The position numbers and the translations under genes were made by a program. A stretch of DNA of 64,000 nt from a virus. Taxonomy: Duplodnaviria > Heunggongvirae > Uroviricota > Caudoviricetes. Below, in pieces: positions 7,628 to 62,980 of the stretch. Numbering within the stretch: position 1 is the first letter of the stretch; each line of letters starts with the position of its first letter. The stretch is taken from IMG/VR virus record IMGVR_UViG_2785510761_000002; one strand, given 5' to 3'. The notes below the pieces were generated by a model that was not told where the DNA came from, did no database searches, and worked only from the letters and a program-made list of their open reading frames with translations.

Positions 7628-7720
7628 AGTCTTTTCCTCTACTGTTTCAAATTGCTCTCCGGCTGGGAGATGCCTCGGCGGGAGTGCTTCGACCTACTAC
7701 TAATGCGCGGCGCTCGACGA

Positions 7721-8857
7721 CTACGCAGCCACCCGGTTCCCGCCGAGGTTCAGCAGTAGCGTTTGCACCTTGGAGCGGAACGCGTTGCGGCGGGCTCGTG
7801 GAATCTTGGGTGCTGCTGGGCAAGTGTGCTGAACGCCAGACCTGGTGACCCGGCGGCACTTCTGGCAGCGATCCACCTGGACACGTTCCGCCCGGTTCTT
7901 CACCAGCTCGTTGTACGCACGGCCAGGGGACCCAGAGCGCAGAATCTCCTCGTACACCTGACGCGGCACCTCGTACGAGTAGGTCCGGCTGCCCTTCATA
8001 GTGAGTGTCATGGTGTTCGTAGCCCGCTCGAACCCGACCCCCTTGATGAATGAGGGCACGGCCGGTGCCTGCATCTGAGCCCCAGCACGGGCCACGCGAT
8101 CGATCTGCAGTTGCTGAAGGGCGCTCTTGCCCTCGACCACCGTCACAGCTTCACCGCGTGCACGTGCTTCCTGGTTTGCGCGGCGAACATTGGCGAAGTG
8201 CAACTCTGCGTCCTTGAGCGCCAGCGACGGACGTCGTGCCTCGAGTACGCAGGCAACAGACTCTGCAGCGCGGTTCTTGGACACGTGATCAGGGAATCCG
8301 AGAGCCTGCACGTCCCATGCGCCGCCGGCCCCTTCGGTCACGCGAACGTACCCGGAGATCCGGCCGCCGCCGTGCTCCATCTCGATCGGCAGGTCAAACG
8401 TCTGTCGTTTGTTCTCCTTGGAGAATCGACGAATCGCTGTGGCGCTCGGCATGCGCAGGTTTACTCCTGCACCGTGGTAGTTCATACGGTGGGTTCGACG
8501 ATGGCCACTAAGGGCGTGCCCATCAGTCATGCCTGGAGTGTAATCGTCGGGCATGATCTTGTATGCGTGGTGCCCTTCGGGCTGCTGCTCCATCCGCTCA
8601 TAGTGCTGCTGCCACCACACATCGATTCCTTCGGTGAAGCTCGGGTTCGTCGCTGACTCCACTGTCGAGGCGTGCGCGTACCCGACGCGCTCAAGCTGCG
8701 CGATGATTGCCTTGCGCTGCTCGGCTGCGTCACCCATGCCTGCGTACACAGGGGGAGGGCCACCTGCGCTGCGGTTGTGGGAGGCGTAGCTTCCTCCGGA
8801 TCCACCCCGGGCAGTCTTCCCGAGTCCAAGGTCTGCGCGTCGCGTCTGGTTTGTCAT
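7721..8857 (-). CDS. leader-family protein 1: conserved N-terminal leader (MTNQTRRADLGLGKTARGGSGGSYASHNR..PPP) plus a unique C-terminal region with a C-terminal CxxC..C..P cluster
   Basis: Shares the roughly 40-aa N-terminal motif with 10 other ORFs in the window. Upstream motif GCCGCACGTAATCGTCGAC-ATG. Confidence 0.7.
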   Translation of the reverse strand: MTNQTRRADLGLGKTARGGSGGSYASHNRSAGGPPPVYAGMGDAAEQRKAIIAQLERVGYAHASTVESATNPSFTEGIDVWWQQHYERMEQQPEGHHAYKIMPDDYTPGMTDGHALSGHRRTHRMNYHGAGVNLRMPSATAIRRFSKENKRQTFDLPIEMEHGGGRISGYVRVTEGAGGAWDVQALGFPDHVSKNRAAESVACVLEARRPSLALKDAELHFANVRRANQEARARGEAVTVVEGKSALQQLQIDRVARAGAQMQAPAVPSFIKGVGFERATNTMTLTMKGSRTYSYEVPRQVYEEILRSGSPGRAYNELVKNRAERVQVDRCQKCRRVTRSGVQHTCPAAPKIPRARRNAFRSKVQTLLLNLGGNRVAA

Positions 8858-9029
8858 GTCGACGATTACGTGCGGCTGTTGGGTCAGCGGCGGTTCGGTG
8901 AAACTGCGCTATGCAGTGCAGTGTCGCCCCACGGTTGGCTCCGCTCGATATTCGAGGGCTCAACGAGCTCCAAAACCGACGCTCATACCTAGAGGGGGTA
9001 TGCAGGGTACCCCAGTGGGGTATATGTTG

Positions 9030-9330
9030 TCAGTTTTGCCCGGGTTTGGGCGTGTTTTGCCCGGGTTGCTCGCCCGCTTGCTCGGGCTACTTCCCTTACG
9101 GGAGTAAGGCTCTCCCGGTTTGCACGGTTTTTCTGGAAATCTGCCTCCCCTATAGACAGTGAGTAACTGTTTCACCGGTTTTGAGGTTCTGCATCTATCT
9201 ATCTATTTCTCTAATAAGAGATAAATAGATATAAACCCGAGTAAACCGGGAGAGCCCTACTCTCGTAAGGGATGCAGCCCGAGCACGAACCCGGTTTTGC
9301 CCGGGCAAGGCCGAGTAAAACCGGGCAAAC
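9030..9330. repeat. iteron-like direct and inverted repeats flanking an AT-rich core (candidate origin)
   Basis: The 13-mer TTTTGCCCGGGTT occurs three times direct and once inverted. A longer inverted pair, TTACGGGAGTAAGGCTCTCCCGGTTTGC / GTAAACCGGGAGAGCCCTACTCTCGTAAGG, brackets the AT-rich palindromic core TCTATCTATCTATTTCTCTAATAAGAGATAAATAGATATAAA. The region is non-coding in all six frames in a 70% GC context. Confidence 0.4.
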
Positions 9331-9977
9331 GGCGAAACCATGCCATTTTCGAGGCTCACACCCCGGTCGCCGGCCCGAGGAGGGTACTTGCGCGCAAACG
9401 GTGCTCCCGCAGCCGATCCCAAGCGCCTGCGTAGAGGCGCCCCGAAAACGGGTGCGGGGCCGGGAAACGAGCGTCCAGGGCCGTTTCCGGCCGCGTTCAA
9501 CCTCTATCGGCGCCCCGAGGACGCGCAGTGCTCCTGAAATCGGCTGAATCGTGGTCGTTATGCACGCGCGCCTACGCGCGTACGCGGGCGCGCGCCCGAC
9601 CGGGGGAAACACTCGCGATTGGACGAAAATCTGAAATGCAGTGTGCGCTCCGTCATGCTGTGAGTTGAGACGCTAGATACCTCGAAAGAGCCGCATACCC
9701 CCACCCCTCAGCAAAAAATGGTTGCTGCGACCTGTCACAGGTTTGTCACGGTAGGCTCAGTCGAGCGTTCCCTCGCCTACCGTGCGGTTTGAGCATTCAC
9801 CTTGCAGAGGATGGGCGCCTTCAATTCGCTTCACTGGTGCTGGCGATTACGCTGCGGCAGTAACAAGCATTCTCACACTGGCGGGTCGGCTTCTCGTCAG
9901 CCGGAGGCATTGATCCGTGTGATCCCGGCTTGCATGTCGTTGAGGGTAAACGAGGCGTGCCGCGCATAAGAGTGTGC

Positions 9978-10739
9978 ATGAAGTCTGCTTCCAAGCTTGG
10001 CGTCTCAGCAATCGTGCTCATCGTGCTGGCCGGATTCCTCATGGCCACGAACATGTGGGATCCGTCTGTCGTCTCATTCACGAGGCACGTGGTGGGCGAC
10101 AAAGCCGCGAGTGCTCTCGACACCACCGCCCGCGGCAGTGTCGATGCATCCAAAAAGTGGGTCGATGAAGCCAAGGATATGACCCTGGAGGATCTGGTTC
10201 AGAAGGCCCGGGAACTTCCTGCCCCAGAGATTCGGAGGATCCCAAAGTACGACCGCGAGGCGCAGTTCGGAACCTGGGTGAACAACGACCTCGGATGCAG
10301 CACCAGACAGATGATCCTCGCGCGGGATCTGGACAATGCTCAGCTCGACGAAGACGACTGCACTGTCCTCTCAGGAACGCTGACCACTGACCCGTATAGC
10401 GGGAAACAGATCGACTTCATCAGCGACCGCGCCGGCGGTGACTCACGAGCGGTGCAGACGGAAACGATCGTTCCGCCTTCCGTCGCTTGGAGGTCCGGAG
10501 CATCTACCTGGACTCAGGAGCAGCGCGCAGCGTTCATGAACGACCCGGACAACCTCATCTCCGTAGGTGAGAAGTCAAGGGCTGACAGGAGCGACAAAGC
10601 GCCGGATCGGTGGATGCCTGCGAACAAGAGCTATGGCTGTTCCTTCGCTGAGGCGTACACAAATGTCACGGTGAAGTACGGACTCTCGCTGGACACGAAG
10701 ACCAGGAACTTCCTCGTAGAGACGTTGGCGCAGTGCTAG
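9978..10739 (+). CDS. hypothetical secreted or membrane-anchored protein
   Basis: Start taken at the internal ATG (MKSASKLGVSAIVLIVLAGFLMATNMW) giving a signal/TM helix. GCCGCGCATAAGAGTGTGC-ATG start-associated motif upstream. Confidence 0.5.
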   Translation: MKSASKLGVSAIVLIVLAGFLMATNMWDPSVVSFTRHVVGDKAASALDTTARGSVDASKKWVDEAKDMTLEDLVQKARELPAPEIRRIPKYDREAQFGTWVNNDLGCSTRQMILARDLDNAQLDEDDCTVLSGTLTTDPYSGKQIDFISDRAGGDSRAVQTETIVPPSVAWRSGASTWTQEQRAAFMNDPDNLISVGEKSRADRSDKAPDRWMPANKSYGCSFAEAYTNVTVKYGLSLDTKTRNFLVETLAQC

Positions 10740-17375: not shown

Positions 17376-17385
17376 CCGCGCATTC
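17376..17385 (+). promoter_or_regulatory. CCGCGCATTC motif instance upstream of the 17409 gene
   Basis: One of more than 20 intergenic copies of the motif, oriented toward the downstream gene. Confidence 0.4.
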
Positions 17386-17408: not shown

Positions 17409-17828
17409 GTGCGCGACATCAGGCAGGCCGCGCCGATAGGTATGAGTTACACCGCAGGAAGACTGCAATCGCTCGGTGAGCAGATGCAATGGACAGTGTT
17501 TGATGCGCAACCTCTGCTCGGCGGGTTCTGCGTGCTCCCCAGCGGCCAGCGAGCGTCGTTTGTCGGAAGCAGTCGCGTCATCACCGACCACGAAGAGCAG
17601 TCACTTGACCCATCGAGCCAGAGAGTCCGCAGTCAGTACTCCGCAAGGCATCTCGGGCCGATTACACGTGAGCTGGTGCGAGATGAATCCCTCGGGCGGG
17701 TGGTCATCTCGTACGAGTTTCAAACCCCGTATGAGCAGGTCACGGCCACTTTCGAGACGCTTGGCGGCTATGATCTGCGTCTGCTGAACGCGTCTGAGCA
17801 CTTGATGGATGATCTGATCTACAGATAA
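17409..17828 (+). CDS. hypothetical protein
   Basis: 139-aa ORF (GTG start) with RBS GAGGAGG upstream. Confidence 0.4.
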   Translation: MRDIRQAAPIGMSYTAGRLQSLGEQMQWTVFDAQPLLGGFCVLPSGQRASFVGSSRVITDHEEQSLDPSSQRVRSQYSARHLGPITRELVRDESLGRVVISYEFQTPYEQVTATFETLGGYDLRLLNASEHLMDDLIYR

Positions 17829-27163: not shown

Positions 27164-28083
27164 AGTACGCCCTCCGTCCTTCTAAGATTCTCTCTGAGTT
27201 GATTCTTGATGTTGCAAACTTCCTGTTCACCGTACAACGAGTTGTCGTAGGTTTCGACGAGAATGCGCAGCGCTTTCTCGTCCGCTTCAAGCAATGGCTT
27301 GCGGTGCCCATATTGCTCTCGAGCGAACACAGCAAATGATCGGGCTTGAGCCTCAAGCGCATCCTCTCCGAGGAGCTCCTGCTCCTCCTGGGGAGGGAAA
27401 GCCATCCCGAAATCGAACGGCGGCATGGCCCGGTATGACCCGTCTGCCTGCTCGATCACCCCGATGTTGCTGAGGTTGTTGATGCGGTCGGTGTTCCCGA
27501 TGATCAGGTCGAAGGCTGACATTCGGAGGACATCCTCGCTCAGGCTTGCGCCCGTGGAGGAGTTCATTGTCTCGATCTGGCCCTTGAGCCGCTTCCAGTC
27601 GTCGTTCTCAATGAAGAACTCCTCGTCAGAGTCCCAGTCTTCGTCCTCTTCAACGAATTCGTCCGATCGAAAATACGAGAGCTGCCGTTCGCGCTCTCCG
27701 ACGCTCTTGAAGTTGTGGGATTCGACACCGATCAGCAGGTTGCCGTCTGCGTCTCGGAAATGCTTAGCGTCATACTGCACGGCGTTTTCGAGGCCCATGG
27801 CGAGTGCTGCTCGCCCGGGGAACTCCTCGCGAATGGCCTCGTCGTGCATGGCATCGAGCTTGATGTACGTGTCGCGGTACGGGTCGTAGAACTTCTGCGT
27901 TGATCCACCCATGACACGTGATGTCGAGTCTTCAGCTACGAGCGCGCTGAGCTCACGCACCTCCCTGACTCCGGCATTCACCGGTGGAGCAGCGATATCT
28001 CGTTCGTGTGCAGCGAAGCTTCCGCCGCTGCCGCCTGCTGCGGTTCTCCCGAGTCCGATGTCTTTCCTGCGCGATGTGCTCAC
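27124..28083 (-). CDS. leader-family protein 2 (GTG start: VSTSRRKDIGLGRTAAGGSGGSFAAHERD..PP)
   Basis: Start set at the GTG preceded by GCCGCGCGTAATCATTCAG. The conserved leader is followed by a unique 280-aa region. Confidence 0.65.
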   Translation of the reverse strand: MSTSRRKDIGLGRTAAGGSGGSFAAHERDIAAPPVNAGVREVRELSALVAEDSTSRVMGGSTQKFYDPYRDTYIKLDAMHDEAIREEFPGRAALAMGLENAVQYDAKHFRDADGNLLIGVESHNFKSVGERERQLSYFRSDEFVEEDEDWDSDEEFFIENDDWKRLKGQIETMNSSTGASLSEDVLRMSAFDLIIGNTDRINNLSNIGVIEQADGSYRAMPPFDFGMAFPPQEEQELLGEDALEAQARSFAVFAREQYGHRKPLLEADEKALRILVETYDNSLYGEQEVCNIKNQLRENLRRTEGVLWRRKSPSVTGAL

Positions 28084-28199
28084 CTGAATGATTACGCGCG
28101 GCATCGGGTGGAGATGTTGGACCCCCGCCGTGGACGGCTGCTGCAGGCTGCCGTAGGACGTTGTACACACGTCACTTAGGGATTCGAACCCCAGTCCAG

Positions 28200-28271
28200 T
28201 GCGCCTCCCTGGAATCGAGCCAGGGGCCTCCGTCTTATCAGGACGGCGCTCTACCGCTGAGCTAGAGGCGC
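28200..28271 (-). tRNA. tRNA-Ile(GAT)
   Basis: Acceptor GCGCCTC/GAGGCGC, anticodon loop CTGATAA. An orphan T-arm plus acceptor fragment (GGGGTTCGAATCCCTAAGTGAC) lies immediately 3', a tRNA remnant. Confidence 0.8.
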
Positions 28272-28345
28272 ATGCCACTGATTCGTTGACACTGGTTCAG
28301 TGACCAAAACCTTGAGAGGCCGACTTCCGGTAGGTAGTCGGCTCG

Positions 28346-28429
28346 TGGCCCTCCCGGGGCTCGAACCCGGACGCTCTTTCGAGCACCGGCTTTTGAGGCC
28401 GGAATGTCTACCATTTCCAACAGAGAGCC
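28346..28429 (-). tRNA. tRNA-Leu(CAA)
   Basis: Type II. Anticodon arm CCGGC-CTCAAAA-GCCGG. Variable-arm hairpin GCTC-GAAA-GAGC. Confidence 0.8.
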
Positions 28430-28601
28430 AGGTGGCTGCTGCCGAGGACTTGAACCCCACCTCCCGGTATTCGCTCGGGCGCGCTTATCGCGGATCGCCA
28501 ACCCGTCATGACCTGGGAGTGCGATGTGCTCACAGTTGCCACGCTCGCCCCCGAAAGTGCACGCAGGGGAGTCACGTTCTTCCGATTGCGCCAAACAGCA
28601 G

Positions 28602-28674
28602 TGCGCCCGCCAGGGTTCGAACCTGGGGCCTACGGATTAAGAGTCCGCAGCTCTACCAACTGAGCTACAGGCGC
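28602..28674 (-). tRNA. tRNA-Lys(CTT)
   Basis: Acceptor GCGCCTG/CGGGCGC, anticodon loop CTCTTAA. Confidence 0.85.
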
Positions 28675-28839
28675 CGAGGGAGCTTGCATCCCATCCGCCG
28701 GCCTCACACCGACTTTTCCGAGTTTCACGGTCCTGTCCAGGCACTGCCTATGCAGCTCCGGAGCACCATCGTCAAGTGTTAGCCTGCCAACCTCGACGCT
28801 CCGCCACGGGCTCTCACCGTGGGTGATGCTCGATCCTCG

Positions 28840-28913
28840 TGGCCATCCTGGGACTCGAACCCAGAACCTTCTGATCCTAAATCAGACGCCTCTGCCAATT
28901 GGGCTAGACGGCC
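28840..28913 (-). tRNA. tRNA with anticodon TAG (Leu-decoding anticodon on a type-I, short-variable-arm scaffold)
   Basis: Acceptor GGCCGTC/GATGGCC, perfect anticodon stem TCTGA/TCAGA, loop TTTAGGA, T-arm CTGGG-TTCGAGT-CCCAG, 5-nt variable loop. Confidence 0.5.
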
Positions 28914-29266
28914 GGGTCCCGCACAATTTTGCAGCCGTGACAGCACCTATCCGCGGTGTGCCGTCCGTGCCTCATCTCCCACACCAGACTGCCTGGACTC
29001 ATGAACCCTGGCGCTATAGCTAACCAGGGTGGCGCGGTACGGGGGCGCGCGTAGGGAAGGGTGGTCCGGCTGCCTCCAGTATGAGACGCAACGCAACGTT
29101 TCGCATCACCGAACGCGGTATTGCACGCCTCAAAGGACGGGAGCCGGAAAAGTGTGTGTCTGCCGCGAGGGAATCTCCGCAGACCCTCGGCCTGCACGGT
29201 GGCGGGTTCCGAGGCTAGCCGCGCATGACGCGGCCGATACAACCCGAGCCGCTGGCTCGGATGTGG

Positions 29267-42863: not shown

Positions 42864-43261
42864 ACTGGCTCGCCTTTCATTCGTCGTCGATCTTGCATGG
42901 TGTTGCGCAGCCGCCAAAGCGGCCAGAAGAGCGTTTTGAACCACCACCAGTCAGGATCAAATGCCCTGAACCCAAGCGGCCACGTTCTGGTGCCACATGA
43001 GGTGCAGGTGTGGATCTGCCAGTGCACTCGGTTCGTCGCCCGTCGATAGGTTCGCTTTTCAGCTGCGGTCGCTGGTTCATCGTCGTAGAAGCCCGGAAAC
43101 TGATCGTCAATCGCTCTGAGCGCCGCGTAGTAGCCCGAGCTTCCGCCAGGACACTCAGGCAGGTGTTTCTCCCACGGGTACGACAGGTCCATCCCCGCAC
43201 CGCTCCAGGCAGGGCAGCGGTTGCGCTTGTTGTAGTCCTTGCGGACTGTGCGTCCGGTCAC
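42860..43261 (-). CDS. hypothetical Trp-rich protein
   Basis: 133-aa ORF with a 4-nt overlap with its neighbours. Confidence 0.4.
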   Translation of the reverse strand: MTGRTVRKDYNKRNRCPAWSGAGMDLSYPWEKHLPECPGGSSGYYAALRAIDDQFPGFYDDEPATAAEKRTYRRATNRVHWQIHTCTSCGTRTWPLGFRAFDPDWWWFKTLFWPLWRLRNTMQDRRRMKGEPV

Positions 43262-43962
43262 GGCGCTACCACCCGATCTTCAAGCGGCCAGCCTGGGTTG
43301 ATGTACGCATCAGCATTTCCCTTCATGCGGAGGTACCCCTGGAAGTTGATGGCCTGCTCCCGCTTCCAGGAGGTCTGTGCGCGCATGAGATTGTCAGTGA
43401 CTGAGAGCCCGAGACGACGAACCATGGCTTGCAGGAGCCGTCCTGCGGCCACAGCGTCAGCTTCTGCGTCGTGGGCGTTCTCAAACGGAACCCCATACGC
43501 CTCAGTGGTGGCCGTGAGAGTGCGTTTACCCTTCCGATACTTGTCGAAGTGCTTGTCAATGACGTGCGGATCGACAATCAGCGATGGCAGCTTGAAGTCG
43601 ATGCCGTAACGTTCACATTCCGCCCGCAGGATGGAAAAGTCGAACACCGCGTTGAACGCGACAACCGGTAGCCCAGACGCGAGGACGCTCTCGAGGATTT
43701 CCCGAACTCCGGTCGCCGCGTCCGACCCTTCTGACTTGGCGCGCGCGTCCGAGACGCCGTGCACTTCGGTGGCTTTTGGATCAATTGGGAAATCTGGGTT
43801 GAGTAGCCAGGAGGCCCGCTCCTCAACAGCCCCGTGCTCGTTGAGTATCGCGACGGTCGCGGTGACGATGCGATCCGTTCCCGCCGTAACGCCTGTGGTT
43901 TCCGTGTCGAACACCGCAATGTTGCGTGCCCACTCCGGCAGGTCTGTCGTGGTCATTTTCAC
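43258..43962 (-). CDS. DEDDh 3'-5' exonuclease (DnaQ/epsilon-like)
   Basis: Exo I AVFDTETTG, Exo II VAFNAVFDFSIL, Exo III H..AEADAVAAGRLL. Confidence 0.8.
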   Translation of the reverse strand: MKMTTTDLPEWARNIAVFDTETTGVTAGTDRIVTATVAILNEHGAVEERASWLLNPDFPIDPKATEVHGVSDARAKSEGSDAATGVREILESVLASGLPVVAFNAVFDFSILRAECERYGIDFKLPSLIVDPHVIDKHFDKYRKGKRTLTATTEAYGVPFENAHDAEADAVAAGRLLQAMVRRLGLSVTDNLMRAQTSWKREQAINFQGYLRMKGNADAYINPGWPLEDRVVAP

Positions 43963-43998: not shown

Positions 43999-44008
43999 GA
44001 ATGCGCGG
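43999..44008 (-). promoter_or_regulatory. CCGCGCATTC motif instance upstream of the exonuclease gene
   Basis: About 36 nt upstream of the ATG at 43962. Confidence 0.4.
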
Positions 44009-44495: not shown

Positions 44496-44551
44496 GATGC
44501 TCCTGTTCCGGGCAGCACCATGCTGCCCGGAACAAAATGCGCGGCATAGAT

Positions 44552-46039
44552 TCAGTTGCCGGATCGCTCCGCGAGCTCGTCGACAATCTGATGCGCCAGG
44601 GCTCGCAGTTCTGCGTCTGTCATGGGGCCGAGATCAGTGTCAGCGGTCGCAACCTCTCGCTCAACTTCACCGTCAGAAGAGACCGACACTGTCCCGCCGA
44701 CCTGGTTGCCGTTCGCGTCACGAAGCGTGATCGTGCCGTCCACTGCGATAGATGCTCTGTAGAGAATCGACTGCCTCTTACCGATGGTGGCGCTCCAAGA
44801 CCCGTCAGATGCAGGCACGACCTCAAACACGGTCAGGCCTGACGCTTGGTAGCCCTGCAGAACTCCACCAGTGATCGAGTCAGCTACCGCCGAGTTCGCT
44901 TGGCGGGCCTCGCCCTTGGGGTACAGGTGCACGGCGTAGTCGTTCAGTTCGCCTGCGCGGTGATGAGTTGCGTCTACAACACCAAGACCAACGATTGAGG
45001 AGCTCGAACCTCGGGGGTTCAGCGGGGTCACATACAGCTGCTTGTCGCCATCGGCCGAAGCCAAGCCAAACTCCGCCCGGTTCACACCGTTTGGGTCGCT
45101 GCCGTCCTTGCCGGTATCCTCCCAACCGACACGCTTGAACCAGTAGTCTGCGAGCGACCCGCTGGCCACAGTGGATTCGCGCTGTGCGGTGGCCACAGAC
45201 TGCGGGTACGCGGGCAGTTCGCCGTCATAGTCTCGTTCAATAGAGAGTTCACCTGACTTGCCGTTGTAGATCGCAACGCCGGCGGGCACACGTGTGGTCA
45301 CCGCGAACCCCTGTTGGCGGGTGAGTGGAGCGTAGATGTACGGCACATCGTCAACGCACACGGCAAACGCGTCGTCTTGGTTCGCGTGGGTTCCAAGCGG
45401 GGTGCGATGGTAGATCGCAGTTTGCAGGTTGTGCACCGGCCACACCCCACCGAACCGGAGCTTTGCGCGTGGATCAAAGTCGCAGAACGTGACATCCTTT
45501 GCGCCGGCCGTTCCATACAAAGGGGGAGTGAGAGTCTGAGTGGATTCGTATCCCTGGAACAGTCCACGTCGGATGACGGAGGTCGTGTACTCGCCGTTCT
45601 CCCCGGCTGCGGTGATCGAGCGTACCTTGCCGCTCACATCTCCAGTGGTCTCGCCGAGAGTGCGCTTGCTGGTGGCAGCAGCGACATCGAAAGGCGCACG
45701 CTCGCGAAAGCTCAGTTCCCCCGGAGGAGTCTCGCTCTGAAACACACTGGCCTCCTGGAGTGCGTTGAGCTGCCAGTACGGAAGGCTGACTCCTGCGAAT
45801 ATCGTCCATCCGGCTGCCAGCACCCCGATGAGAAAAGCAATGCCACCATTGTCTGATGCGGTGCATGTGATCACGATTATTGCAAGGATGATGAGCGGGA
45901 TGAACACCAGCCAAGAAGCGCGGAACCCGGACCAGAGGCCAACCAAAAATGCCGGGAAGAGCCACCAGATCAGGCCTCCCACCACCACGCAGACAGCCAG
46001 GCTGATGACCGCGCCAGCCAGAGAGTTGCTTTCACGCAA
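44552..46039 (-). CDS. hypothetical membrane-anchored protein (N-terminal TM helices, large extracytoplasmic domain)
   Basis: 495 aa, two or three N-terminal TM helices. RBS AAAGGAGC. CCGCGCATTC about 28 nt upstream. Confidence 0.55.
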   Translation of the reverse strand: MRESNSLAGAVISLAVCVVVGGLIWWLFPAFLVGLWSGFRASWLVFIPLIILAIIVITCTASDNGGIAFLIGVLAAGWTIFAGVSLPYWQLNALQEASVFQSETPPGELSFRERAPFDVAAATSKRTLGETTGDVSGKVRSITAAGENGEYTTSVIRRGLFQGYESTQTLTPPLYGTAGAKDVTFCDFDPRAKLRFGGVWPVHNLQTAIYHRTPLGTHANQDDAFAVCVDDVPYIYAPLTRQQGFAVTTRVPAGVAIYNGKSGELSIERDYDGELPAYPQSVATAQRESTVASGSLADYWFKRVGWEDTGKDGSDPNGVNRAEFGLASADGDKQLYVTPLNPRGSSSSIVGLGVVDATHHRAGELNDYAVHLYPKGEARQANSAVADSITGGVLQGYQASGLTVFEVVPASDGSWSATIGKRQSILYRASIAVDGTITLRDANGNQVGGTVSVSSDGEVEREVATADTDLGPMTDAELRALAHQIVDELAERSGN

Positions 46040-46069: not shown

Positions 46070-46079
46070 GAATGCGCGG
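46070..46079 (-). promoter_or_regulatory. CCGCGCATTC motif instance
   Basis: About 28 nt upstream of the 46039 start. Confidence 0.4.
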
Positions 46080-48093: not shown

Positions 48094-48281
48094 ACCGACA
48101 ACGTGAAGCTCATCGTCCTTCGAGGCGCAGGTTGGGGTGGACTTGGGTCCTCGAATGGCGGAGTATCTCAAGAAAATCTCGAAAAACATGTACGAGCCGA
48201 TGAGTACGCAAATGAGCGAAATGTACACGAAAATGAGAAGGTGAAAAGCATCAGTCATGCCTTTGTGAATGCGCGGCGCCG

Positions 48282-53986: not shown

Positions 53987-54102
53987 GCCCTATGAATGCG
54001 CGGTCATGTTGAAAATCGGGCAAAAATGAGCTCCGAAGTCGTGAAGTGATGTGCCTCTGAGTGAGCCTGTGTATTGAATGTCATTGGTCTTGCCTAAAGT
54101 GA

Positions 54103-54633
54103 GTGCTGGGACGTTACCTGAGGAAAGGGAAGAATGAGATGGACGGCAATAGTGCTGCGGATTTAGTCGCGGCTGAAACCCCGGAGGGTCTTGGTGAGCG
54201 CGGTGAGCGGATTGATGCAGCTCGCGAGCTTGACCTCGTTGTCTCTGCGTTCGGAGACAAACGCCCGTGGACATTAGACGGCTTCGTGGAGGGCATCCCA
54301 TGGCCTGCAGAGCATGCCTCCCTGTTTGAAGCGGCTTCGTTACTTCGCGATGACGATGAGATCGGTTTTGACACCCCGATGATCAACCTGGAGCATGCAG
54401 GACATCTCGGAGATGCCACCGACCGGCTCGACTCCATTCGCGGAGCGTGGGAGGCCGAGGGGCGCACCGTGTTCCAGATGAAGGAGTCGCCAGACGGCGG
54501 GCAGGTTGCGTACATTTGGTCATATGGCCATGGACTGAAGACAGAAGTCTCTGCGCATGCCTCAGACGATGAGACGCTCTTCAGAGTGGAGATCACCGTG
54601 ACGGCCCCGCCTCCGGGGGTAGGCCGCATGTAA
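54103..54633 (+). CDS. hypothetical protein
   Basis: 176-aa ORF; alternative start MDGNSAADL. Confidence 0.45.
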   Translation: MLGRYLRKGKNEMDGNSAADLVAAETPEGLGERGERIDAARELDLVVSAFGDKRPWTLDGFVEGIPWPAEHASLFEAASLLRDDDEIGFDTPMINLEHAGHLGDATDRLDSIRGAWEAEGRTVFQMKESPDGGQVAYIWSYGHGLKTEVSAHASDDETLFRVEITVTAPPPGVGRM

Positions 54634-54640
54634 TGCAGGC

Positions 54641-54859
54641 ATGAAGACCAGCACGCGACGGGGCGATCTCGGCCTCGGCAAGACCGCACGCGGTGGAAAC
54701 AACGGAAGCTATGTAGTCCACGAAAGGCAGGACGGCGCGCCTCCGCCCCTATCGCAAAGATCGCTTGATCGCGGGTTTGACACGCTCGACGAGAAACTTG
54801 CTGCAATGACGCAGGAAGTCTCAGAGGCGGTAGAGCGGCTGCAGGGCGACGACGAGTGA
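54641..54859 (+). CDS. leader-only minigene of the leader family (MKTSTRRGDLGLGKTARGGNNGSYVVHERQDGAPPP plus a 35-aa tail)
   Basis: Only plus-strand family member. Preceded by GCCGCATGTAATGCAGGC-ATG. Immediately upstream of the ArdC-like gene. Confidence 0.55.
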   Translation: MKTSTRRGDLGLGKTARGGNNGSYVVHERQDGAPPPLSQRSLDRGFDTLDEKLAAMTQEVSEAVERLQGDDE

Positions 54860-54877
54860 CATAGGTACCTGGACGCA

Positions 54878-55720
54878 ATGTCGCGGCTTCACTCGTACTC
54901 CCTTGGTAACCAGCTTCTGATCGCGCTCCAAAAACCAGAAGCCACCCATGTCGGCGGGCAAGGCATGTGGAAGAGCATCGGCAGGCAGCTCCTCCCTGCC
55001 GAAGAACGTGGCAGCGGGATCAGCATCTTCCGCCCTATTTCCGGGTTCAGGGACCGGGCAGACGTTAACGGCTTCCCGGTGCTTCGGGACGACGGAAAGC
55101 CACTCCGGGATCGTGTGGTCATCATGTACTCAGCGGCCACGGTCTACGATGTCCCACAAACCTCTGGCACTCCTCTGCCAGAAGACATGATTGCTCAGAA
55201 CCTGTCCGGCGATGTGCCACGGGGGTTCGAAGAGGACACCGACTTGAGCATCGGACGGATCGGCTATGCGCTGAGCGAAGAGGAGCTGACCGGGGGCCGG
55301 AAGGGGTCCACCACCACGAACGGCAGCAAGCGAATCGTCATCAAAGCAGGACTGCCTCCATCGGAGCGTGTCCGAGCAAAGATGCACGAGGTCGGTCATG
55401 TCGCCGCGGGACATGTGAACGAGCAACACTACCTCGAATGCCACACGGGCGCCGGCGGCATGAGCAGCTCGATGGAGGTGGAGGCTGATTCAATTGGCCA
55501 CGTTATGCTGCGCATGAACAGCATGAATCCGAACTCCGGCATCTCACAGTATGCCGCCGGGTGGGCGAGCGTGCAGAGCGACGATCCTGACGTGGTGAAG
55601 AACACAGCCGCAGGGGTGCTGAGGGCAGTGAAAACGCTGATCAGCGAACATGACTGGAGGAATGCAATCACCCTTGAGAGGCCGCCAGCTGAGCCGCGCA
55701 ACAGCTCGGCATGCAGATAG
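54878..55720 (+). CDS. ArdC-like anti-restriction protein (N-terminal ssDNA-binding domain plus HExxH metalloprotease domain)
   Basis: N-terminus YSLGNQLLIALQ...GGQGMWKSIGRQL resembles ArdC-N. C-terminal HEVGHVAAGH zincin motif. Confidence 0.7.
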   Translation: MSRLHSYSLGNQLLIALQKPEATHVGGQGMWKSIGRQLLPAEERGSGISIFRPISGFRDRADVNGFPVLRDDGKPLRDRVVIMYSAATVYDVPQTSGTPLPEDMIAQNLSGDVPRGFEEDTDLSIGRIGYALSEEELTGGRKGSTTTNGSKRIVIKAGLPPSERVRAKMHEVGHVAAGHVNEQHYLECHTGAGGMSSSMEVEADSIGHVMLRMNSMNPNSGISQYAAGWASVQSDDPDVVKNTAAGVLRAVKTLISEHDWRNAITLERPPAEPRNSSACR

Positions 55721-55983
55721 TGTCGACCAGGGAGGTTGTTTTGAGCGCACAGATCCTCCAGGTCGAGTTTGGCGGCACCCCCTTCGAGGTCGAGGTCATC
55801 GACGAGGGCGAAGGGGAGGTGCTGACGTTCGATGACCCCGCTATCTTCGCCGAATTCGAGGAGGCCGAAGCCACGGTACAGAGCTTCGATCACCCATCAA
55901 TCCGGCGCCGCGTCCTGGAACTCCGCGACCAACTCCTGACGATCACCGGGGAGCTCGACCTGTTACTTGCAGATGCTGCCTAG
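55711..55983 (+). CDS. hypothetical acidic protein
   Basis: 90-aa ORF; a TTG start after RBS GGGAGG is likely. Confidence 0.35.
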   Translation: MQIVSTREVVLSAQILQVEFGGTPFEVEVIDEGEGEVLTFDDPAIFAEFEEAEATVQSFDHPSIRRRVLELRDQLLTITGELDLLLADAA

Positions 55984-57430: not shown

Positions 57431-58168
57431 TCATGAAGCCGCCGTAACGTCAATTCCGGTGCGTCGCTTGGCCTCCTGGATCACGTTCAGCACACCCCGC
57501 CCGTCGATGGGGGTGTTTGGGAGCGTGATTTGCTCACTGGGGTGCGCCGGATGCACCGCGCGCAGGTGGTCGTTGCCTTGAAAAGAGATGCAGAATCCAG
57601 CACGCTCGAACGCGCGGCGAAGCTCCTTGCCCGTACCGGGCATCTTCCGGCCGCTGCCGCCGCTTGGCGAGCGTACGTTTGAAGGGTCATGAGACGGGTA
57701 CCTGGCGACTCCGACGACGCGCCATGACTCTTTTGCAACGAGAACCGACAGCTCATCTCCGCGGTAGTTCTCCACGTCACCGAACCTCGCAGGTGTGATG
57801 CGCACCGGCGAGTGAACGACTTCGAGCACCGATTCTCGATTAATTCCCTCATCGCTCATCTGTTGCAGAGCCTTGGCAGTGAACCCGGGCTCCATCTCGT
57901 CGCAGCCCACCGCATCCGCGCTCCAGAGAGCTGAGGTAGCTGGGGTGGGTGCTGGACGGGGGACAGGGATTGGTTTTGGCGCTGTCGGGACGGCGACCAG
58001 CTGAGGCTTGTCTTGTGCGTGCGAATGGTCGACGGTAGCTCCGTGAGCTGCGGCGAGCAGAAATCCTGCGACCTGCCCTGCGGCTTCGCGTGAAAGTACG
58101 ACCCGGTGTCCGTCGATCGCAATTGTGACTGGGCCGGTTCCTGCGGAGGCCACATGGAGTTCAGGCAT
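57431..58168 (-). CDS. protein with C-terminal HicA-like (YcfA) domain
   Basis: C-terminus LRRAFERAGFCISFQGNDHLRAVHP...ITLPNTPIDGRGVLNVIQEA fits the HicA pattern GF...GSH...P.H.l..g.l..i. Confidence 0.4.
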   Translation of the reverse strand: MPELHVASAGTGPVTIAIDGHRVVLSREAAGQVAGFLLAAAHGATVDHSHAQDKPQLVAVPTAPKPIPVPRPAPTPATSALWSADAVGCDEMEPGFTAKALQQMSDEGINRESVLEVVHSPVRITPARFGDVENYRGDELSVLVAKESWRVVGVARYPSHDPSNVRSPSGGSGRKMPGTGKELRRAFERAGFCISFQGNDHLRAVHPAHPSEQITLPNTPIDGRGVLNVIQEAKRRTGIDVTAAS

Positions 58169-58328
58169 TCGTTTTCACCCTTCAGTGAGATTACCGTCTG
58201 AATGCGCGGTCGGCCGACTTGCCGGGGCTCGCGCGCCTGCCCCGGTAAGTCGGCCCGATCACTGTCATTCCGGGCGAAAGGTGGCGCCCGGCAGTGTGTC
58301 GTGCATCGTGTAGGTGTGACGGGGCAGG

Positions 58329-58865
58329 TCAGGAGGGCTGGTGATCCACCGTGGCGATCTCGGAGAGGTCGCCGGACAGGTGAATGCTTGCGCCGTTTCG
58401 TTCGACTCGCATCTTCCCTCGCGCTTCGACATCGCGCGTGAGTTCGTTGCCCCACACTTCGCCAAGTTCGCGCCCGGCAGCGCCCCGAAGATCAGTGAGG
58501 TTGCCGTACTCGCCGCGGGAACGCACCATTGGGGTGTCACCATCAAGCTCGATGCGGATCCACCACTTCGAAGGGGGAGTGATGCCGCTGCCGTCGAACG
58601 AGGAGCGCGCCTGTTCAGCAAGCTGGCGAAGCGCAAGCGTCACGTCCCGCAGTTCGATCGTCCCAACTGTCTGCGCAGCGGAAAGGAGCACGCCGTCGCA
58701 TACGGGTGCTGCGATCATCATGATCGAGCCTTCGACTCCGTAGCCGATGATGGCCTGGAACTCGGTGATCTGCGTGCCGGTGAGCGTCCGCTGCACAGTG
58801 GCTGCCGCTTCCTGCTCGACGGTGGTTACGATCATGTCGCGGATCAGGTTCTGGTCTGGCTGCAT
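58329..58865 (-). CDS. hypothetical protein
   Basis: Start at the internal ATG overlapping the dprA stop (TAATG). Confidence 0.45.
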   Translation of the reverse strand: MQPDQNLIRDMIVTTVEQEAAATVQRTLTGTQITEFQAIIGYGVEGSIMMIAAPVCDGVLLSAAQTVGTIELRDVTLALRQLAEQARSSFDGSGITPPSKWWIRIELDGDTPMVRSRGEYGNLTDLRGAAGRELGEVWGNELTRDVEARGKMRVERNGASIHLSGDLSEIATVDHQPS

Positions 58866-59818
58866 TACTGCTCCTTGGTTTCGGAGGGGAGAAGCGCGAT
58901 GCGCTTGAGGTCTTCGGGGTCGGTGACGAGCTCTGCCACGTGCTCCCTGATCAGCGCGTGACATCCGGTGGATGCGGAGCTGGTGATCGGGCCGGGAACA
59001 GCGAACACTGCCCGGTCAAGATCCCTAGCTGTATGGGCGACGCGTATCGCGCTTGAGCGCGCGCCCGCCTCGGGGATGATCAGCGCTCGGCTGAGAGCCG
59101 CAATCAGGCGGCCGCGTTGCTGAAATCGCCACCGTGTCGGTGCAGATCCAGGGGCAAGCTCAGAGAGAACCAATCCGCCCCTGTCTGGGATCGTTCGAAG
59201 CAGTTCGCTATGCCCCTGGGGGTACGGCCGGTCGAGCGCTGAAGCTTGAACCGCGATCGTCGGCAGGCCCACGGCGATAGCTGCACGGTGGGCGGCTCCG
59301 TCGATGCCATACGCTCCGCCTGCGATGACAGTGACGCGGTGCTGTGCGAACGCACTGACAAACTCAGCCGTAACATGCGCACCGTATGCAGTGCTGGCTC
59401 GCGACCCCGCCACTGCGAGCTTCGTTCTCCGAAGCACGTCGAGATCTCCGCGTACCCAGAGGCCGTGCGGCATGGTGTCCCGGAGATCGTGCAACCCATG
59501 AGGCCAGGAGTGGTGCTCCGGGATGAGGAGCCGCTGACCGTCCTTCGCGGCAACTAGGAGCATCTCGCTGATACGCTGCTCGCCGGGGTTGCGATCCTGC
59601 CAGCGGCGGAAGTTGCTGTTGAATCTGCTCTCCGGGTTGAGGGCGATTTGCAGAGCCACAATTGGGCCGTGCTCCCTGATGATTGCACCGGCAGCCTGGT
59701 CACCAGGCTCGGTGATCATCAGCCAGGTGGCGCGCGCGCGTAGCAGTTCTGCTTGAGCGTCACTCATGTCGTCGCGTCGCTCACCGTCGATGGATATGAG
59801 CAGATTCTTGTTCTCCAT
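58865..59818 (-). CDS. dprA: DNA-processing protein A (DprA/Smf)
   Basis: Rossmann-fold DprA core GGAYGIDGAAHRAAI...VFAVPGPITS. Confidence 0.8.
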   Translation of the reverse strand: MENKNLLISIDGERRDDMSDAQAELLRARATWLMITEPGDQAAGAIIREHGPIVALQIALNPESRFNSNFRRWQDRNPGEQRISEMLLVAAKDGQRLLIPEHHSWPHGLHDLRDTMPHGLWVRGDLDVLRRTKLAVAGSRASTAYGAHVTAEFVSAFAQHRVTVIAGGAYGIDGAAHRAAIAVGLPTIAVQASALDRPYPQGHSELLRTIPDRGGLVLSELAPGSAPTRWRFQQRGRLIAALSRALIIPEAGARSSAIRVAHTARDLDRAVFAVPGPITSSASTGCHALIREHVAELVTDPEDLKRIALLPSETKEQ

Positions 59819-59860: not shown

Positions 59861-59870
59861 GAATGCGCGG
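59861..59870 (-). promoter_or_regulatory. CCGCGCATTC motif instance upstream of dprA
   Basis: About 45 nt upstream of the ATG, with RBS AAGGAGCC. Confidence 0.4.
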
Positions 59871-60038: not shown

Positions 60039-60614
60039 TTACTCCGAGATCAGTTTTGCGTTCGCCAGGTCTGCCTCGGTCTGCTGCGTGCCTGCGGCAT
60101 TGACCAGCAGGTACAGGTCGGCCTCCTCGGCGATGGTGCCGACCGCTGTCTCAATCACCGGCAGCAGGGCGCGGTTCGTGAACAGGCGCTGACCGGTGGG
60201 TGTGAGCTGCTGGTAGGTCACGTACAGTCCGTCGTCAGTCACGGTTGTGTCAGCCACCTGCTCTGCGGGGAACCAGCTCGCCGGCACGGGAAGCAATCCA
60301 TCGAACCAGGCGATTGCCGTCTCGATCCGCTGTTTCCCGTCGATGACTCCGTAGAGGTGATTACCGAGAGGAAACCCGTCAACTGCTTTCGGCCATGGCG
60401 GCGCCAGACGGTCATTGATGATCACAGCCGGGATTGGCATTCCGATCAGCCATGAGCGGATCAGCCCGATGCGCTGATCGTCAGTCCACACGGATCCCCG
60501 CTGGTATGCAGGCGAGAGGTCTCCTGCCGCCAAGAGGCGTGCCACCTCGCGCGCTGACCGGTTTGAAGCGGTAAGTGTTTGGTGGGTGATGGGGTGCGCG
60601 GTCTGTCGAGTCAT
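60039..60614 (-). CDS. DUF262 (ParB/GmrSD-N-like) domain protein
   Basis: DGKQRIETAIAWF matches the DGQQR motif of DUF262. Confidence 0.6.
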   Translation of the reverse strand: MTRQTAHPITHQTLTASNRSAREVARLLAAGDLSPAYQRGSVWTDDQRIGLIRSWLIGMPIPAVIINDRLAPPWPKAVDGFPLGNHLYGVIDGKQRIETAIAWFDGLLPVPASWFPAEQVADTTVTDDGLYVTYQQLTPTGQRLFTNRALLPVIETAVGTIAEEADLYLLVNAAGTQQTEADLANAKLISE

Positions 60615-60679
60615 GATGTCCTCTCTGGCGCGGGTGCCGCGCTCCCCGTTTCAATGCGCGGGATGCCGGAGACAGAGAA

Positions 60680-62459: not shown

Positions 62460-62534
62460 CCTTCAATCCGAGCTAACTGACACGCGCACACTGCGCTCAC
62501 CTTCTCCGCACATACGGGTCTGCGCCCCGAGCAC

Positions 62535-62568
62535 GAAAAAAGGTGGACGGCAGCCATCGCTGCCGTCC
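62535..62568 (-). terminator. Rho-independent terminator
   Basis: Perfect hairpin GGTGGACGGCAGC-gatg-GCTGCCGTCCACC followed by UUUUUUCG on the minus strand, directly after the stop of the 62595..62924 gene. Confidence 0.65.
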
Positions 62569-62594
62569 ACCTGAATGCGCGGTGACCGCGAAAA

Positions 62595-62924
62595 TCAGCT
62601 CTTCTGGTTGCGCCAGTTGAGTTCGCGCACGAGCGCTTCTGCGCCAGCTTTCAGGGAGGTGCACTCCAAGTTCCTGCCGTGCTTGCTGGAGCGGTACTGC
62701 CACCCAGGCGACTGCCACCTGGCAAGCACATACCGAAGGCCCTGAGCGCGCCGCTCACGGGTGAGCATCGACCGTTCGACATAGCCAATTGCCTCGCCGT
62801 CCAAGGTCACCTCGTACACGCGACCGATCCTGGTTTTTGAGACCTCGCCGTACTTGTTCTTGATCTCACGCACATCACCCTCGCGGATGAGTGTGACTAC
62901 AGGTTCGCTGCTCTGGGCGGTCAT
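62595..62924 (-). CDS. hypothetical protein
   Basis: 109-aa ORF. CCGCGCATTC about 45 nt upstream. Confidence 0.45.
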   Translation of the reverse strand: MTAQSSEPVVTLIREGDVREIKNKYGEVSKTRIGRVYEVTLDGEAIGYVERSMLTRERRAQGLRYVLARWQSPGWQYRSSKHGRNLECTSLKAGAEALVRELNWRNQKS

Positions 62925-62980
62925 GGTTTCCTTTCCGGCCGGCGCATCTCGCGGGCTCAGATCCGGAATGCGCGGTCGCG

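Follow-up and report, generated by a model that had tools for sequence, protein, structure and literature searches.

The window, a 64,000-nucleotide stretch of DNA, is part of an actinobacterial conjugative megaplasmid-like element, and it raises the question of what role is played by a short motif that recurs ahead of its genes and tRNA blocks. The initial annotation had regarded this 10-bp sequence as too frequent for chance and had suggested either a regulator or sigma-factor regulon or promoters formed by single-strand hairpins. The evidence below argues that CCGCGCAT(T/A) is probably the core promoter element of the element, a family-specific promoter without a -35 that heads most of its transcription units.

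When the shuffle check was run, the suspected excess was borne out: the exact 10-mer CCGCGCATTC occurs 14 times, whereas dinucleotide shuffles predict 0.33 (the largest shuffle yielding 2), and with up to one mismatch it occurs 29 times against 9.9. The 8-mer core CCGCGCAT occurs 28 times versus 4.6 expected under a third-order Markov model. Twenty-four of these copies are non-coding, one of them overlapping the last codons of a gene (binomial p = 4.5e-13), and each of the 24 points in the direction of the gene or tRNA that follows it (binomial p = 6e-8), 5 on the plus strand and 19 on the minus strand. The remaining four (12998-, 29219+, 34057+ and 35243+) are about as many as chance predicts, and therefore the entire motif excess is intergenic. 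The positional bias and the orientation toward the downstream gene or tRNA, both claimed earlier, are upheld by these counts. The 24 good copies comprise the 22 already recognized, each carrying CCGCGCAT[T/A]N no more than 10 nt from where it had been placed, and two overlooked ones at 9960(+) and 23749(-). Among the former, 14 are the exact 10-mer and eight deviate at position 9 or 10 (..TTA in two, ..TTG in three, ..TAC in two and ..TTT in one). They are listed here with their contexts; orthologous copies are those in two related loci, L003 (FtsK 76% identical) and L004 (45%).

7701-7710, minus strand: CCGCGCATTA, 73 nt before ssb (7007-7627); head of the ssb/lysozyme-M23/T4SS operon.
9960-9969, plus strand: CCGCGCATAA, with the ATG at 9978 following after 8 nt (leaderless-type); head of the GmrSD_C-SNF2-NERD-FtsK operon; conserved in L003.
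17376-17385, plus strand: exact copy, 3 nt past the FtsK stop and 23 nt before gene 17409-17828; orthologous copies in L003 and L004.
20685-20694, minus strand: exact copy, 43 nt upstream of orn (RNase_T, 20084-20641), serving as left arm of an 11-bp inverted repeat (20668-20698); orthologous copy in L003.
22885-22894, minus strand: CCGCGCATTG, 34 nt before tRNA-Asp (Asp-Lys-Gly block, then a TROVE gene).
23749-23758, minus strand: CCGCGCATAG, 44 nt upstream of a 79-aa gene (23465-23704) with its ATG at 23704; conserved in L003.
24084-24093, minus strand: CCGCGCATTG, 32 nt before tRNA-Met.
29936-29945, minus strand: exact copy, 28 nt before tRNA-Trp, the head of a long tRNA block.
30379-30388, minus strand: CCGCGCATTA, 114 nt before tRNA-Gln; overlaps the last codons of gene 30375-30995.
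35195-35204, minus strand: CCGCGCATAC, 39 nt before gene 34952-35155; head of a five-gene minus-strand block.
36502-36511, minus strand: exact copy, 47 nt before gene 35429-36454; half of a divergent pair, within an CCCGCGCA-N20-TGCGCGGG repeat.
36634-36643, plus strand: exact copy; the ATG of an N6/N4 methyltransferase follows after 8 nt, at 36652 (leaderless-type); partner of 36502-36511 in the divergent pair.
41182-41191, plus strand: exact copy, right behind a TGA stop and 46 nt before gene 41238-41519.
41521-41530, plus strand: CCGCGCATAC, right behind a stop and 44 nt before the TTG at 41575.
43999-44008, minus strand: exact copy, 42 nt before a DnaQ-type exonuclease (43258-43956).
44535-44544, minus strand: CCGCGCATTT, 39 nt upstream of a 77-aa ORF with its ATG at 44495.
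46070-46079, minus strand: exact copy, 30 nt before gene 44552-46039; preceded by a terminator-like hairpin and T-run.
48267-48276, minus strand: exact copy; the ATG of a dUTPase-containing ORF follows after 8 nt, at 48258 (leaderless-type).
53994-54003, minus strand: exact copy; the ATG of a 71-aa gene follows after 7 nt, at 53986; the copy heads a block of about eight genes.
58200-58209, minus strand: exact copy, 31 nt before gene 57431-58168; preceded by a strong hairpin.
59861-59870, minus strand: exact copy, 42 nt before dprA (58865-59818).
60652-60661, minus strand: CCGCGCATTG, 37 nt before a GmrSD_N/DUF262 gene (60039-60614); preceded by a hairpin with a 16-bp stem.
62573-62582, minus strand: exact copy, 113 nt before an LRR/LANTG surface protein; a terminator-like hairpin follows directly (62572-62541).
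62966-62975, minus strand: exact copy, 41 nt before gene 62595-62924.

The downstream genes previously named (ssb, orn, dprA, the DnaQ-type exonuclease, dut and the LRR protein), as well as the tRNA blocks, are confirmed. A distance of 25-50 nt to the start, as had been proposed, applies to most sites, with 14 of 20 coding-sequence sites at 23-47 nt and three of four tRNA sites at 28-34 nt, but not to four sites at 7-8 nt and three at 73, 113 and 114 nt. The two members of the divergent pair, 36502(-) and 36634(+), are directed outward. No copy heads the units 7721-8857 and 24097-24992 or the ArdC operon (54139-55983), so other promoters must exist in addition.

In its gene content (ssb, ArdC-like, orphan methyltransferases, dprA, umuC-like) the window resembles a plasmid leading or establishment region, and three sites are arms of perfect inverted repeats, two features that might suggest Frpo-type hairpin promoters active on single-stranded DNA upon entry into the recipient. 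The three inverted repeats quoted in the initial annotation are indeed present as written. However, the motif is not often half of such a repeat: a GCGCGG partner lies within 50 nt downstream at only 3 of the 24 sites (p = 0.08; background 4% per site), and the palindrome near 29219 does not share the orientation of its neighbours. When 110-nt stretches around 20 sites were folded as single-stranded DNA, 16 gave ordinary z-scores between -2 and +1.2, and the strong folding in the three or four exceptions (z < -2.5 at 46070, 58200 and 60652) comes from hairpins that lie upstream of the motif, exclude it, and look like terminators of the preceding genes. Moreover, a single-strand promoter acts only on the transferred strand, whereas these sites follow gene direction on both strands; at 10 bp the motif is also far from the long imperfect hairpins that rebuild a -35 and a -10, and it precedes tRNA blocks and the T4SS and FtsK operons and is backbone-wide in a complete relative. 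Hence the hairpin proposal is not supported, the strand distribution by itself going most of the way to refuting it, and we consider it highly improbable.

Examination of the aligned sites showed that the motif is asymmetric, 10-12 bp in size and GC-rich, with the logo R-CCGCGCATT-C-A and an enrichment of purines 18-19 nt from its start. Upstream of it, where a -35-like element would be sought, the logo has no information content and no k-mer is enriched after correction. At four genes (9978, 36652, 48258 and 53986) an ATG follows 7-8 nt after the 10-mer, which is too close to accommodate a Shine-Dalgarno leader; the starts at 9978 and 53986 are identical in independent database gene calls. 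In the window alone, an ATG or GTG occurs at a fixed offset of 7-10 nt at 4-5 sites (p = 0.03). From these spacing statistics we infer that the fixed-spacing ATGs represent leaderless starts. A role as a translation signal is excluded by the copies ahead of tRNAs.

Variant forms of the motif, arranged in the same way, recur in distantly related megaplasmids. The Glaciihabitans plasmid displays a CCGCGCATG-N8-ATG architecture, with an ATG or GTG at +9 in 12 of 21 CCGCGCAT copies (p = 8e-14), while the Arthrobacter and Pseudarthrobacter megaplasmids share the variant CCGCACACA-N7/8-ATG: in the plasmid of Arthrobacter sp. zg-Y1110 a start lies at +7/8 in 29 of 41 CGCACACA copies (p = 1e-24), and in pACHL01 of Pseudarthrobacter chlorophenolicus A6 at +8 in 12 of 17 copies (p = 2e-14). 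Further variants are C[CG]GCATA in Curtobacterium pS16 and CCGCGCATATCTACAGGTGA in an uncultured relative. In the orthologous intergenic regions of L003 and L004 only CCGCGCAT is invariant, the flanks having diverged. In the complete Glaciihabitans plasmid the motif is restricted to backbone regions and distributed across the whole backbone; the 31-104 kb segment carrying metabolic, IS, rep and par genes has a single copy (81,020).

These observations also bear on the idea that the motif marks the DNA itself, as a methyltransferase target, a site for primase or replication, or a sequence for uptake or transfer, instead of signaling transcription. The element encodes C5 and N6/N4 methyltransferases (two genes at 36652-40243), the motif contains GCGC and CGCG, and an AEP-primase-like plus wHTH protein is conserved among the relatives. 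Yet none of these roles would explain why the copies on either strand always point toward the downstream gene, why they are limited to 5' intergenic positions, or why their distance to start codons is fixed in four plasmid lineages, and we find such a role scarcely credible. Modulation of the promoters by methylation could still occur.

The leaderless geometry would place the transcription start about 8-9 nt downstream of the motif, and the motif itself at about -17 to -8. Under the preferred reading as a core promoter, the motif would be a single asymmetric -10-region element, with the conserved CA at about -12/-11, directing RNA polymerase to start about 8-9 nt beyond the 10-mer. It would head most of the backbone units, namely the ssb/T4SS, FtsK and methyltransferase operons, together with orn, the exonuclease, dut, dprA, the LRR protein and the tRNA blocks, such promoters frequently following at once on the stop codon or terminator of the gene before. 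The terminator-like hairpins upstream of the copies at 46070, 58200 and 60652 fit this layout, in which one unit ends and the next begins.

Promoters of the actinobacterial housekeeping sigma-A have a TANNNT -10, with an optional TTGACA-like -35 at a spacing of 16-18 nt. The motif does not look like a usual bacterial promoter of this kind: the hexamer aligned to the -10 is CATTCA, position -7 is A or C in 18 of 22 sites and T in two, and TANNNT, with its A at -11 and T at -7, is not matched. The corresponding hexamers in the relatives are CACATA and CATAGN, with a weak T at -7 in Glaciihabitans only. The absence of T at -7 and -12 makes recognition by the housekeeping holoenzyme alone doubtful. 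In the 44-64 kb region no sigma-70-consensus promoter was found versus 3.3 expected. Recognition would require a specificity factor other than ordinary sigma-A, the candidates being a host alternative sigma, sigma-A with an accessory protein, or an unrecognised element-encoded factor.

The copies may form a sigma-factor regulon, as originally suggested; the part of that suggestion concerning a promoter-type gene-expression signal is supported, but a cognate sigma or HTH gene was not found in the window. Pfam searches detected no sigma, HTH regulator or other DNA-binding domain in the window, and no sigma-70-family gene there or in the 8 kb further left (including the listed Pfam hits). Likewise, the complete Glaciihabitans plasmid, which has the same core, has no annotated sigma factor, and phmmer searches with RpoD and RpoE gave a best E-value of 0.3. 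No sign of an element-encoded RNA polymerase, whether single-subunit T7-like or of the two-barrel DxDGD type, was found: there is no Pfam RNA_pol match in the window, none is annotated in the complete Glaciihabitans plasmid, and the long ORFs of the window, that plasmid and other loci contain no convincing DxDGD motif.

The same anatomy would be expected if a DNA-binding regulator had its operator across a weak -10. The motif might be primarily an operator, an asymmetric site overlapping the -10 at which an element- or host-encoded binder represses or activates many promoters together, comparable to RK2 KorA operators, the asymmetric stoperators of mycobacteriophage L5 and the interpretation given to the 34-bp motif of pMP7017. 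That analogue overlaps the -10 and was interpreted as a transcription-factor site (PMC10832533). The asymmetric, intergenic, transcription-oriented placement, as with stoperators, agrees with such a role, as do the GC-rich half CCGCGC, which is unlike any melting-region element, and the palindromic pairing of the orn motif with a downstream TGCGCGG retained in L003. Against it, only 7-9 nt separate the motif from the fixed-distance ATG and nothing else is conserved, so that any -10 element must lie inside the motif itself; the window lacks a detectable DNA-binding domain, and palindromic partners are confined to the three sites noted above. An operator is, moreover, compatible with a promoter and not exclusive of it, and as the primary role we regard it as unlikely.

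Several known systems resemble the proposed core promoter in part. Phage T4 late promoters (TATAAATA) lack a -35 and are read by gp55, a phage-encoded minimal sigma, and other -35-less promoters are likewise read by minimal sigma factors that a phage or plasmid encodes; they share with the motif a single extended -10-region element repeated across a mobile element as private transcription, but are AT-rich, and no gp55-like or sigma-70-family gene was found in the window or in one complete relative. The comparison is an analogy only. The upstream conserved sequence promoters of the linear yeast killer plasmids (pGKL) are likewise short plasmid-specific motifs before nearly every gene with very short leaders, but are read by a plasmid-encoded RNA polymerase, of which no signature was found here. 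Cluster A mycobacteriophage stoperators (bound by L5 gp71) and the start-associated sequences of cluster K phages are asymmetric 13-bp class motifs that recur about 20-30 times, oriented with transcription, in the short intergenic stretches of actinobacterial mobile elements, and are similar in this respect. Stoperators act, however, by blocking elongation, at no fixed distance to start codons, and start-associated sequences contain a ribosome-binding site; the present motif differs from both in its fixed spacing to putative leaderless ATGs and its occurrence before tRNAs. The Frpo/ssi single-strand promoters in the leading regions of enterobacterial plasmids form long hairpins and occur on one strand only. 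Like the motif, they accompany ssb and anti-restriction genes on conjugative elements, but neither the one-strand placement nor a long stable hairpin including the promoter hexamers is seen here.

Among published systems, the 34-bp promoter-overlapping motif of the conjugative megaplasmid pMP7017 of Bifidobacterium breve comes nearest. This motif overlaps the -10 of 19 promoters, which drive about one quarter of the plasmid's coding capacity, defence and replication/repair genes among it, and is absent from host chromosomes but found in related plasmids (PMC10832533). In both cases a conjugative megaplasmid of actinobacteria has a motif of its own that overlaps the -10 region of many promoters, and pMP7017 also carries tRNAs and a tmRNA. 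The pMP7017 motif is nevertheless unrelated in sequence (AWAYATGYTATACTGAATATGTCCACATAAAAWA), is 34 bp long, precedes leadered genes and contains a canonical extended -10 (TGnTATACT), its copies reading ..TGtTATACTgaatgtGTCCACATAAAA.., whereas the window motif is 10-12 bp, GC-rich, devoid of TANNNT and leaderless in spacing; the 34-bp consensus with its embedded TATACT does not occur in the window. There is a loose resemblance only between its CCACATA part and the Arthrobacter-type CGCACACATA, and an FtsK/TcpA-type protein is common to the two elements, albeit distant (26% identity).

Taken across lineages, it is tentatively conceivable that this element and the Glaciihabitans, Curtobacterium, Arthrobacter and Pseudarthrobacter plasmids form a Micrococcales conjugative megaplasmid family with a private, phage-like transcription, in which -35-less, non-TANNNT CCGC[G/A]CA.. 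promoters yield mostly leaderless mRNAs and an unrecognised plasmid-encoded specificity factor co-evolves with the motif variant of each lineage. That factor would be a minimal sigma-like or polymerase-appropriating protein without detectable sigma-70 similarity. More speculatively, it could be one of the many proteins that bear the conserved N-terminal tag, co-transferred with the DNA such that the promoters fire on entry.

The exact 10-mer CCGCGCATTC (the motif stretch is also written CCGCGCATTCA) occurs 14 times in the window against an expectation of 0.33, and its 8-mer core CCGCGCAT is found 28 times against 4.6 expected. All 22 positions listed in the initial annotation are real, and two further good copies lie at 9960(+) and 23749(-). 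When placement was tested against a self-trained gene map and tRNA calls, 24 of the 28 core copies (5 on the plus and 19 on the minus strand) proved to lie outside coding sequence and to point in the direction of the next gene or tRNA (p = 4.5e-13 for non-coding placement; p = 6e-8 for orientation). The four remaining core copies are about as many as chance would supply; hence, the excess lies wholly in 5' intergenic DNA. The motif is thus real and non-random, and its proposed enrichment at gene starts is confirmed. The aligned sites read R-CCGCGCATT-C-A; their upstream side carries no information, with neither a position logo nor k-mer enrichment revealing a -35-like element upstream of the sites, and there is an enrichment of purines 18-19 nt from the motif start. 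Possible degenerate copies precede further tRNAs (CCGTGCAT at 29391, CCGCGGAT at 28947 and CCGCGCAA at 26567). A palindrome between tRNA genes (GCCGCGCATGACGCGGC, 29213-29229), with the motif core on the plus strand and antisense to its neighbors, is probably a small hairpin and not a promoter copy.

The window corresponds to roughly the last 64 kb of the 163 kb contig SNYA01000009.1 (NCBI assembly GCA_004362775.1). It contains 21-22 tRNA genes and one tmRNA, and an Rfam search of it recovered only tRNAs and the tmRNA. We dropped its identification as a tRNA-rich phage on finding T4SS, FtsK/TcpA, ssb and ArdC-like genes along with plasmid relatives. Pfam searches and annotation show the hallmarks of Gram-positive conjugative elements in the window, and the products of the element include:

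FtsK/SpoIIIE (TcpA-like) protein of 1246 aa, in the window
lysozyme and M23 peptidase protein, in the window
VirB4-like ATPase, just left of the window
SSB, in the window
two RNase_T-type exonucleases, in the window
DprA, in the window
dUTPase, in the window
36652-40243, plus strand, N6/N4 DNA methyltransferase and C5 DNA methyltransferase (Pfam)
54878-55720, plus strand, protein resembling the annotated ArdC-family protein of the Curtobacterium plasmid pS16 (38% identity)
UmuC-like polymerase, in the window
LRR surface protein with a LANTG sorting signal, in the window

Full-length relatives of the FtsK-like protein (~30% identity) are encoded on 150-600 kb plasmids of Pseudarthrobacter, Arthrobacter, Paenarthrobacter, Curtobacterium and Glaciihabitans, and more distant ones on Bifidobacterium megaplasmids, e.g. 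pMP7017; nearer relatives come only from unassembled or uncultured data (loci L003 and L004, 76 and 45% identical, respectively). Megablast searches with 20-24 kb queries recovered no close relatives among deposited phages and, among plasmids, tRNA matches only with no near relative; distant blastn against phages yielded methyltransferase matches only, and a profile search of genome contigs built on the FtsK alignment brought up no relative.

Many motif copies are placed directly 3' of the stop codon of the preceding gene (..TGAG-CCGCGCAT, e.g. at 41182, 41521 and 46070), a terminator-like hairpin precedes the motif at 46070, 58200 and 60652, and a divergent intergenic region displays two outward-pointing copies, 36502(-) and 36634(+). 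Where genes are tightly packed, the run has a single copy at its head and none internally, as in the following examples:

ssb into the T4SS genes
GmrSD_C gene through FtsK
53986 down to 48282
35155 down to 30375

The motif also lies 28-114 nt upstream of four tRNA blocks, which rules out a translation signal. At four genes (9978, 36652, 48258 and 53986) the ATG is just 7-8 nt past the 10-mer, leaving no space for a Shine-Dalgarno leader; the starts at 9978 and 53986 match independent protein-database gene calls, and gene calling gives the L003 ortholog of the 9978 gene this same start. Leaderless mRNAs are common in actinobacteria. Were the mRNAs of these four genes leaderless, the A of the ATG would be the start site and the motif would span approximately -17 to -8, with its C-A at -12/-11. 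Taken together, the best account of the motif is that it serves as the promoter core of the element itself; T4 late promoters, L5 stoperators, the KorA operators of RK2 and the UCS promoters of killer plasmids are functional analogies.

Two other kinds of promoter were weighed against this reading. A housekeeping promoter should present TANNNT at -12 to -7, and we rejected it as the hexamer aligned to this position is CATTCA, with a T neither at -12 nor at -7; the corresponding hexamers in the relatives are CACATA and CATAGN, and a consensus scan of 44-64 kb recovered no sigma-70-type promoters. The single-strand hairpin promoter offered in the initial annotation drew on inverted repeats, and the three that were quoted are indeed real, but they are exceptional: a GCGCGG complement occurs within 50 nt of only 3 of 24 sites (p = 0.08). 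The copies track gene direction on both strands, ssDNA folding of 20 sites gave ordinary z-scores, and the strong hairpins in these folds sit upstream of the motif and exclude it, leading us to reject this proposal as well. L003 preserves the inverted repeat at orn, which may therefore contribute local regulation.

Comparison with the relatives reveals the same design in lineage-specific sequence, with the variants CCGCGCATT / CCGCGCATG / CCGCATAG / CCGCACACAT. L003 retains CCGCGCATTC/ATAA/ATAG after the FtsK stop and before orn, the GmrSD_C gene and a 79-aa gene, while L004 has six intergenic copies of the 20-mer CCGCGCATATCTACAGGTGA; when the orthologous intergenic regions of the window, L003 and L004 are aligned, only CCGCGCAT is invariant. 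The complete Glaciihabitans plasmid contains 21 CCGCGCAT copies, almost all tG-CCGCGCATG, with an ATG or GTG exactly 9 nt on at 12 of them (p = 8e-14); its 31-104 kb region, coding for metabolic, IS, rep and par genes, has a single copy (81,020). In the 84 kb sampled of the Arthrobacter sp. zg-Y1110 plasmid, 41 CGCACACA copies occur in the context (G/T)C-CGCACACA, 29 of which have an ATG 7-8 nt on (p = 1e-24). Likewise, a fixed-spacing ATG follows 12 of 17 copies on pACHL01 of Pseudarthrobacter chlorophenolicus, and Curtobacterium pS16 displays C[CG]GCATA with an ATG 8-10 nt on. The core common to all is CCGC(G/A)CA, behind which comes a short AT-containing stretch. Between the motif and the ATG the bases also have a lineage consensus (TAGGGG in Arthrobacter, nnnTTCCn in Glaciihabitans); selection therefore acts at the DNA level on everything from -17 to -1. 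When genome contigs were scanned with the Glaciihabitans-type leaderless pattern TGCCGCGCATGNNNTTCCNATG, scattered matches at about chance level came up, none of them in Micrococcales; the scan thus says little about use of the pattern on host chromosomes. It also matched a highly repeated ..attttggattgtggatTGCCGCGCATGGCGTTCCAATGcgctctgacgg.. in Chloroploca, Viridilinea and other Chloroflexota genomes (L019, L022, L026-L029, L031, L037, L038, L040, L041, L043, L044, L047, L048, L050, L051 and L053-L055), which is a dispersed repeat family unconnected with this element.

Among published cases, pMP7017 of Bifidobacterium breve comes closest; its motif is predicted to drive ~24% of the coding capacity, is not found on bifidobacterial chromosomes but occurs in related plasmids, and was read by its authors as a transcription-factor site (PMC10832533). 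Thus, this kind of arrangement is already known; the present motif differs from that of pMP7017 in sequence and length, in having no canonical -10 and in its leaderless spacing. Literature searches with the motif strings returned unrelated primer matches only; together with searches on Micrococcales plasmid promoters they gave no description of the present motif, and no Arthrobacter transcription start site data were found in the literature.

The cognate HTH regulator or sigma factor envisaged on the element in the initial annotation did not emerge: Pfam searches detected no sigma factor, HTH regulator or WhiB among the proteins of the window and 8 kb further left. On the complete Glaciihabitans plasmid, which shares the core, neither a sigma factor nor an RNA polymerase is annotated; phmmer searches of the six-frame ORFs from all loci analysed, with RpoD and RpoE as queries, gave a best E-value of 0.3, and a regular expression for the DxDGD signature of two-barrel RNA polymerases found nothing convincing. 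On these results a canonical element-encoded sigma factor is unlikely. The candidates left are a host alternative sigma factor, sigma-A with a helper protein, or an unrecognised element-encoded factor; a private transcription system across the family, with an unrecognised plasmid-encoded specificity factor, is an idea we hold tentatively and consider rather doubtful. A protein of 600-650 aa, whose annotation names it an HTH or MarR regulator, is kept in three related plasmids:

L010 (related-plasmid locus), 4554-6494, minus strand
L004, 6313-8253, minus strand
L011 (related-plasmid locus), 15529-17352, minus strand

It shows a weak N-terminal match to archaeo-eukaryotic primases and a winged-helix domain near residue 490, and is probably a replication protein; given this primase-like and wHTH architecture and the lack of a homologue in the window, we rejected it as the reader of the motif.

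If the motif is such a promoter core, these 150-550 kb megaplasmids with tRNA arrays, tmRNA, T4SS and Tad-like pili, which are little-studied, would rely for backbone expression on a single promoter type outside the known actinobacterial sigma-A rules, and their transcription units and leaderless genes would become predictable. It would further provide an entry point to the factor by which a GC-rich element lacking a -35 is recognised, with the lineage variants as a natural co-variation series for its identification, and supply compact, orthogonal promoter parts for Micrococcales.

Several further features of the window were observed. At 62541-62582 (-) the motif copy 62573 is followed at once by a terminator-like hairpin with a 14-bp stem and a T-run; transcription beginning 8-9 nt past this motif would start within the left arm, such that its own transcripts would escape the terminator, which would halt upstream read-through. 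The operon at 54139-55983 (+), which includes the ArdC-like gene and diverges from the motif-bearing gene at 53986, is motif-less and must use another kind of promoter. The methyltransferases at 36652-40243 share one motif-driven operon, and Pfam detected no restriction partner for them; methylation of the promoters is conceivable, as the motif contains GCGC and CGCG. The tRNA array with the tmRNA (tag ASYKQRDLTLAA) occupies 22410-30264 (-) of this conjugative element with small ORFs interspersed, and a TROVE/Ro60-like gene (20713-22284) adjoins it. Divergent T4SS-side and FtsK-side genes are separated by 1.1 kb of non-coding DNA (8858-9977), a candidate oriT or origin, which contains an inverted repeat with 53-nt arms (9079-9131 and 9233-9285; 87% complementary) around an AT-rich center (9190-9235), and three GTTTTGCCCGGG(TT) repeats; the adjoining gene at 7721-8857 is among the few transcription-unit heads without the motif. 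Finally, ten otherwise dissimilar window proteins share, almost unchanged, the N-terminal sequence M(S)N(I)TRRQD(H/Q)GLGKTA(A/S)GGSGGSFA(S/A)HER:

N-termini near 8857, 28104, 32144, 33217, 34922, 49571, 50549, ~51030, 51903 and 53368, all minus strand

Among these, DUF7007 occurs in one protein and a KTSC domain in one. In the Arthrobacter and Pseudarthrobacter relatives many motif-driven leaderless genes have a comparable N-terminal NRQP(E/Q)G(I)P(A)GGQFA, and the shared peptide looks like a common tag, possibly a secretion or translocation signal.
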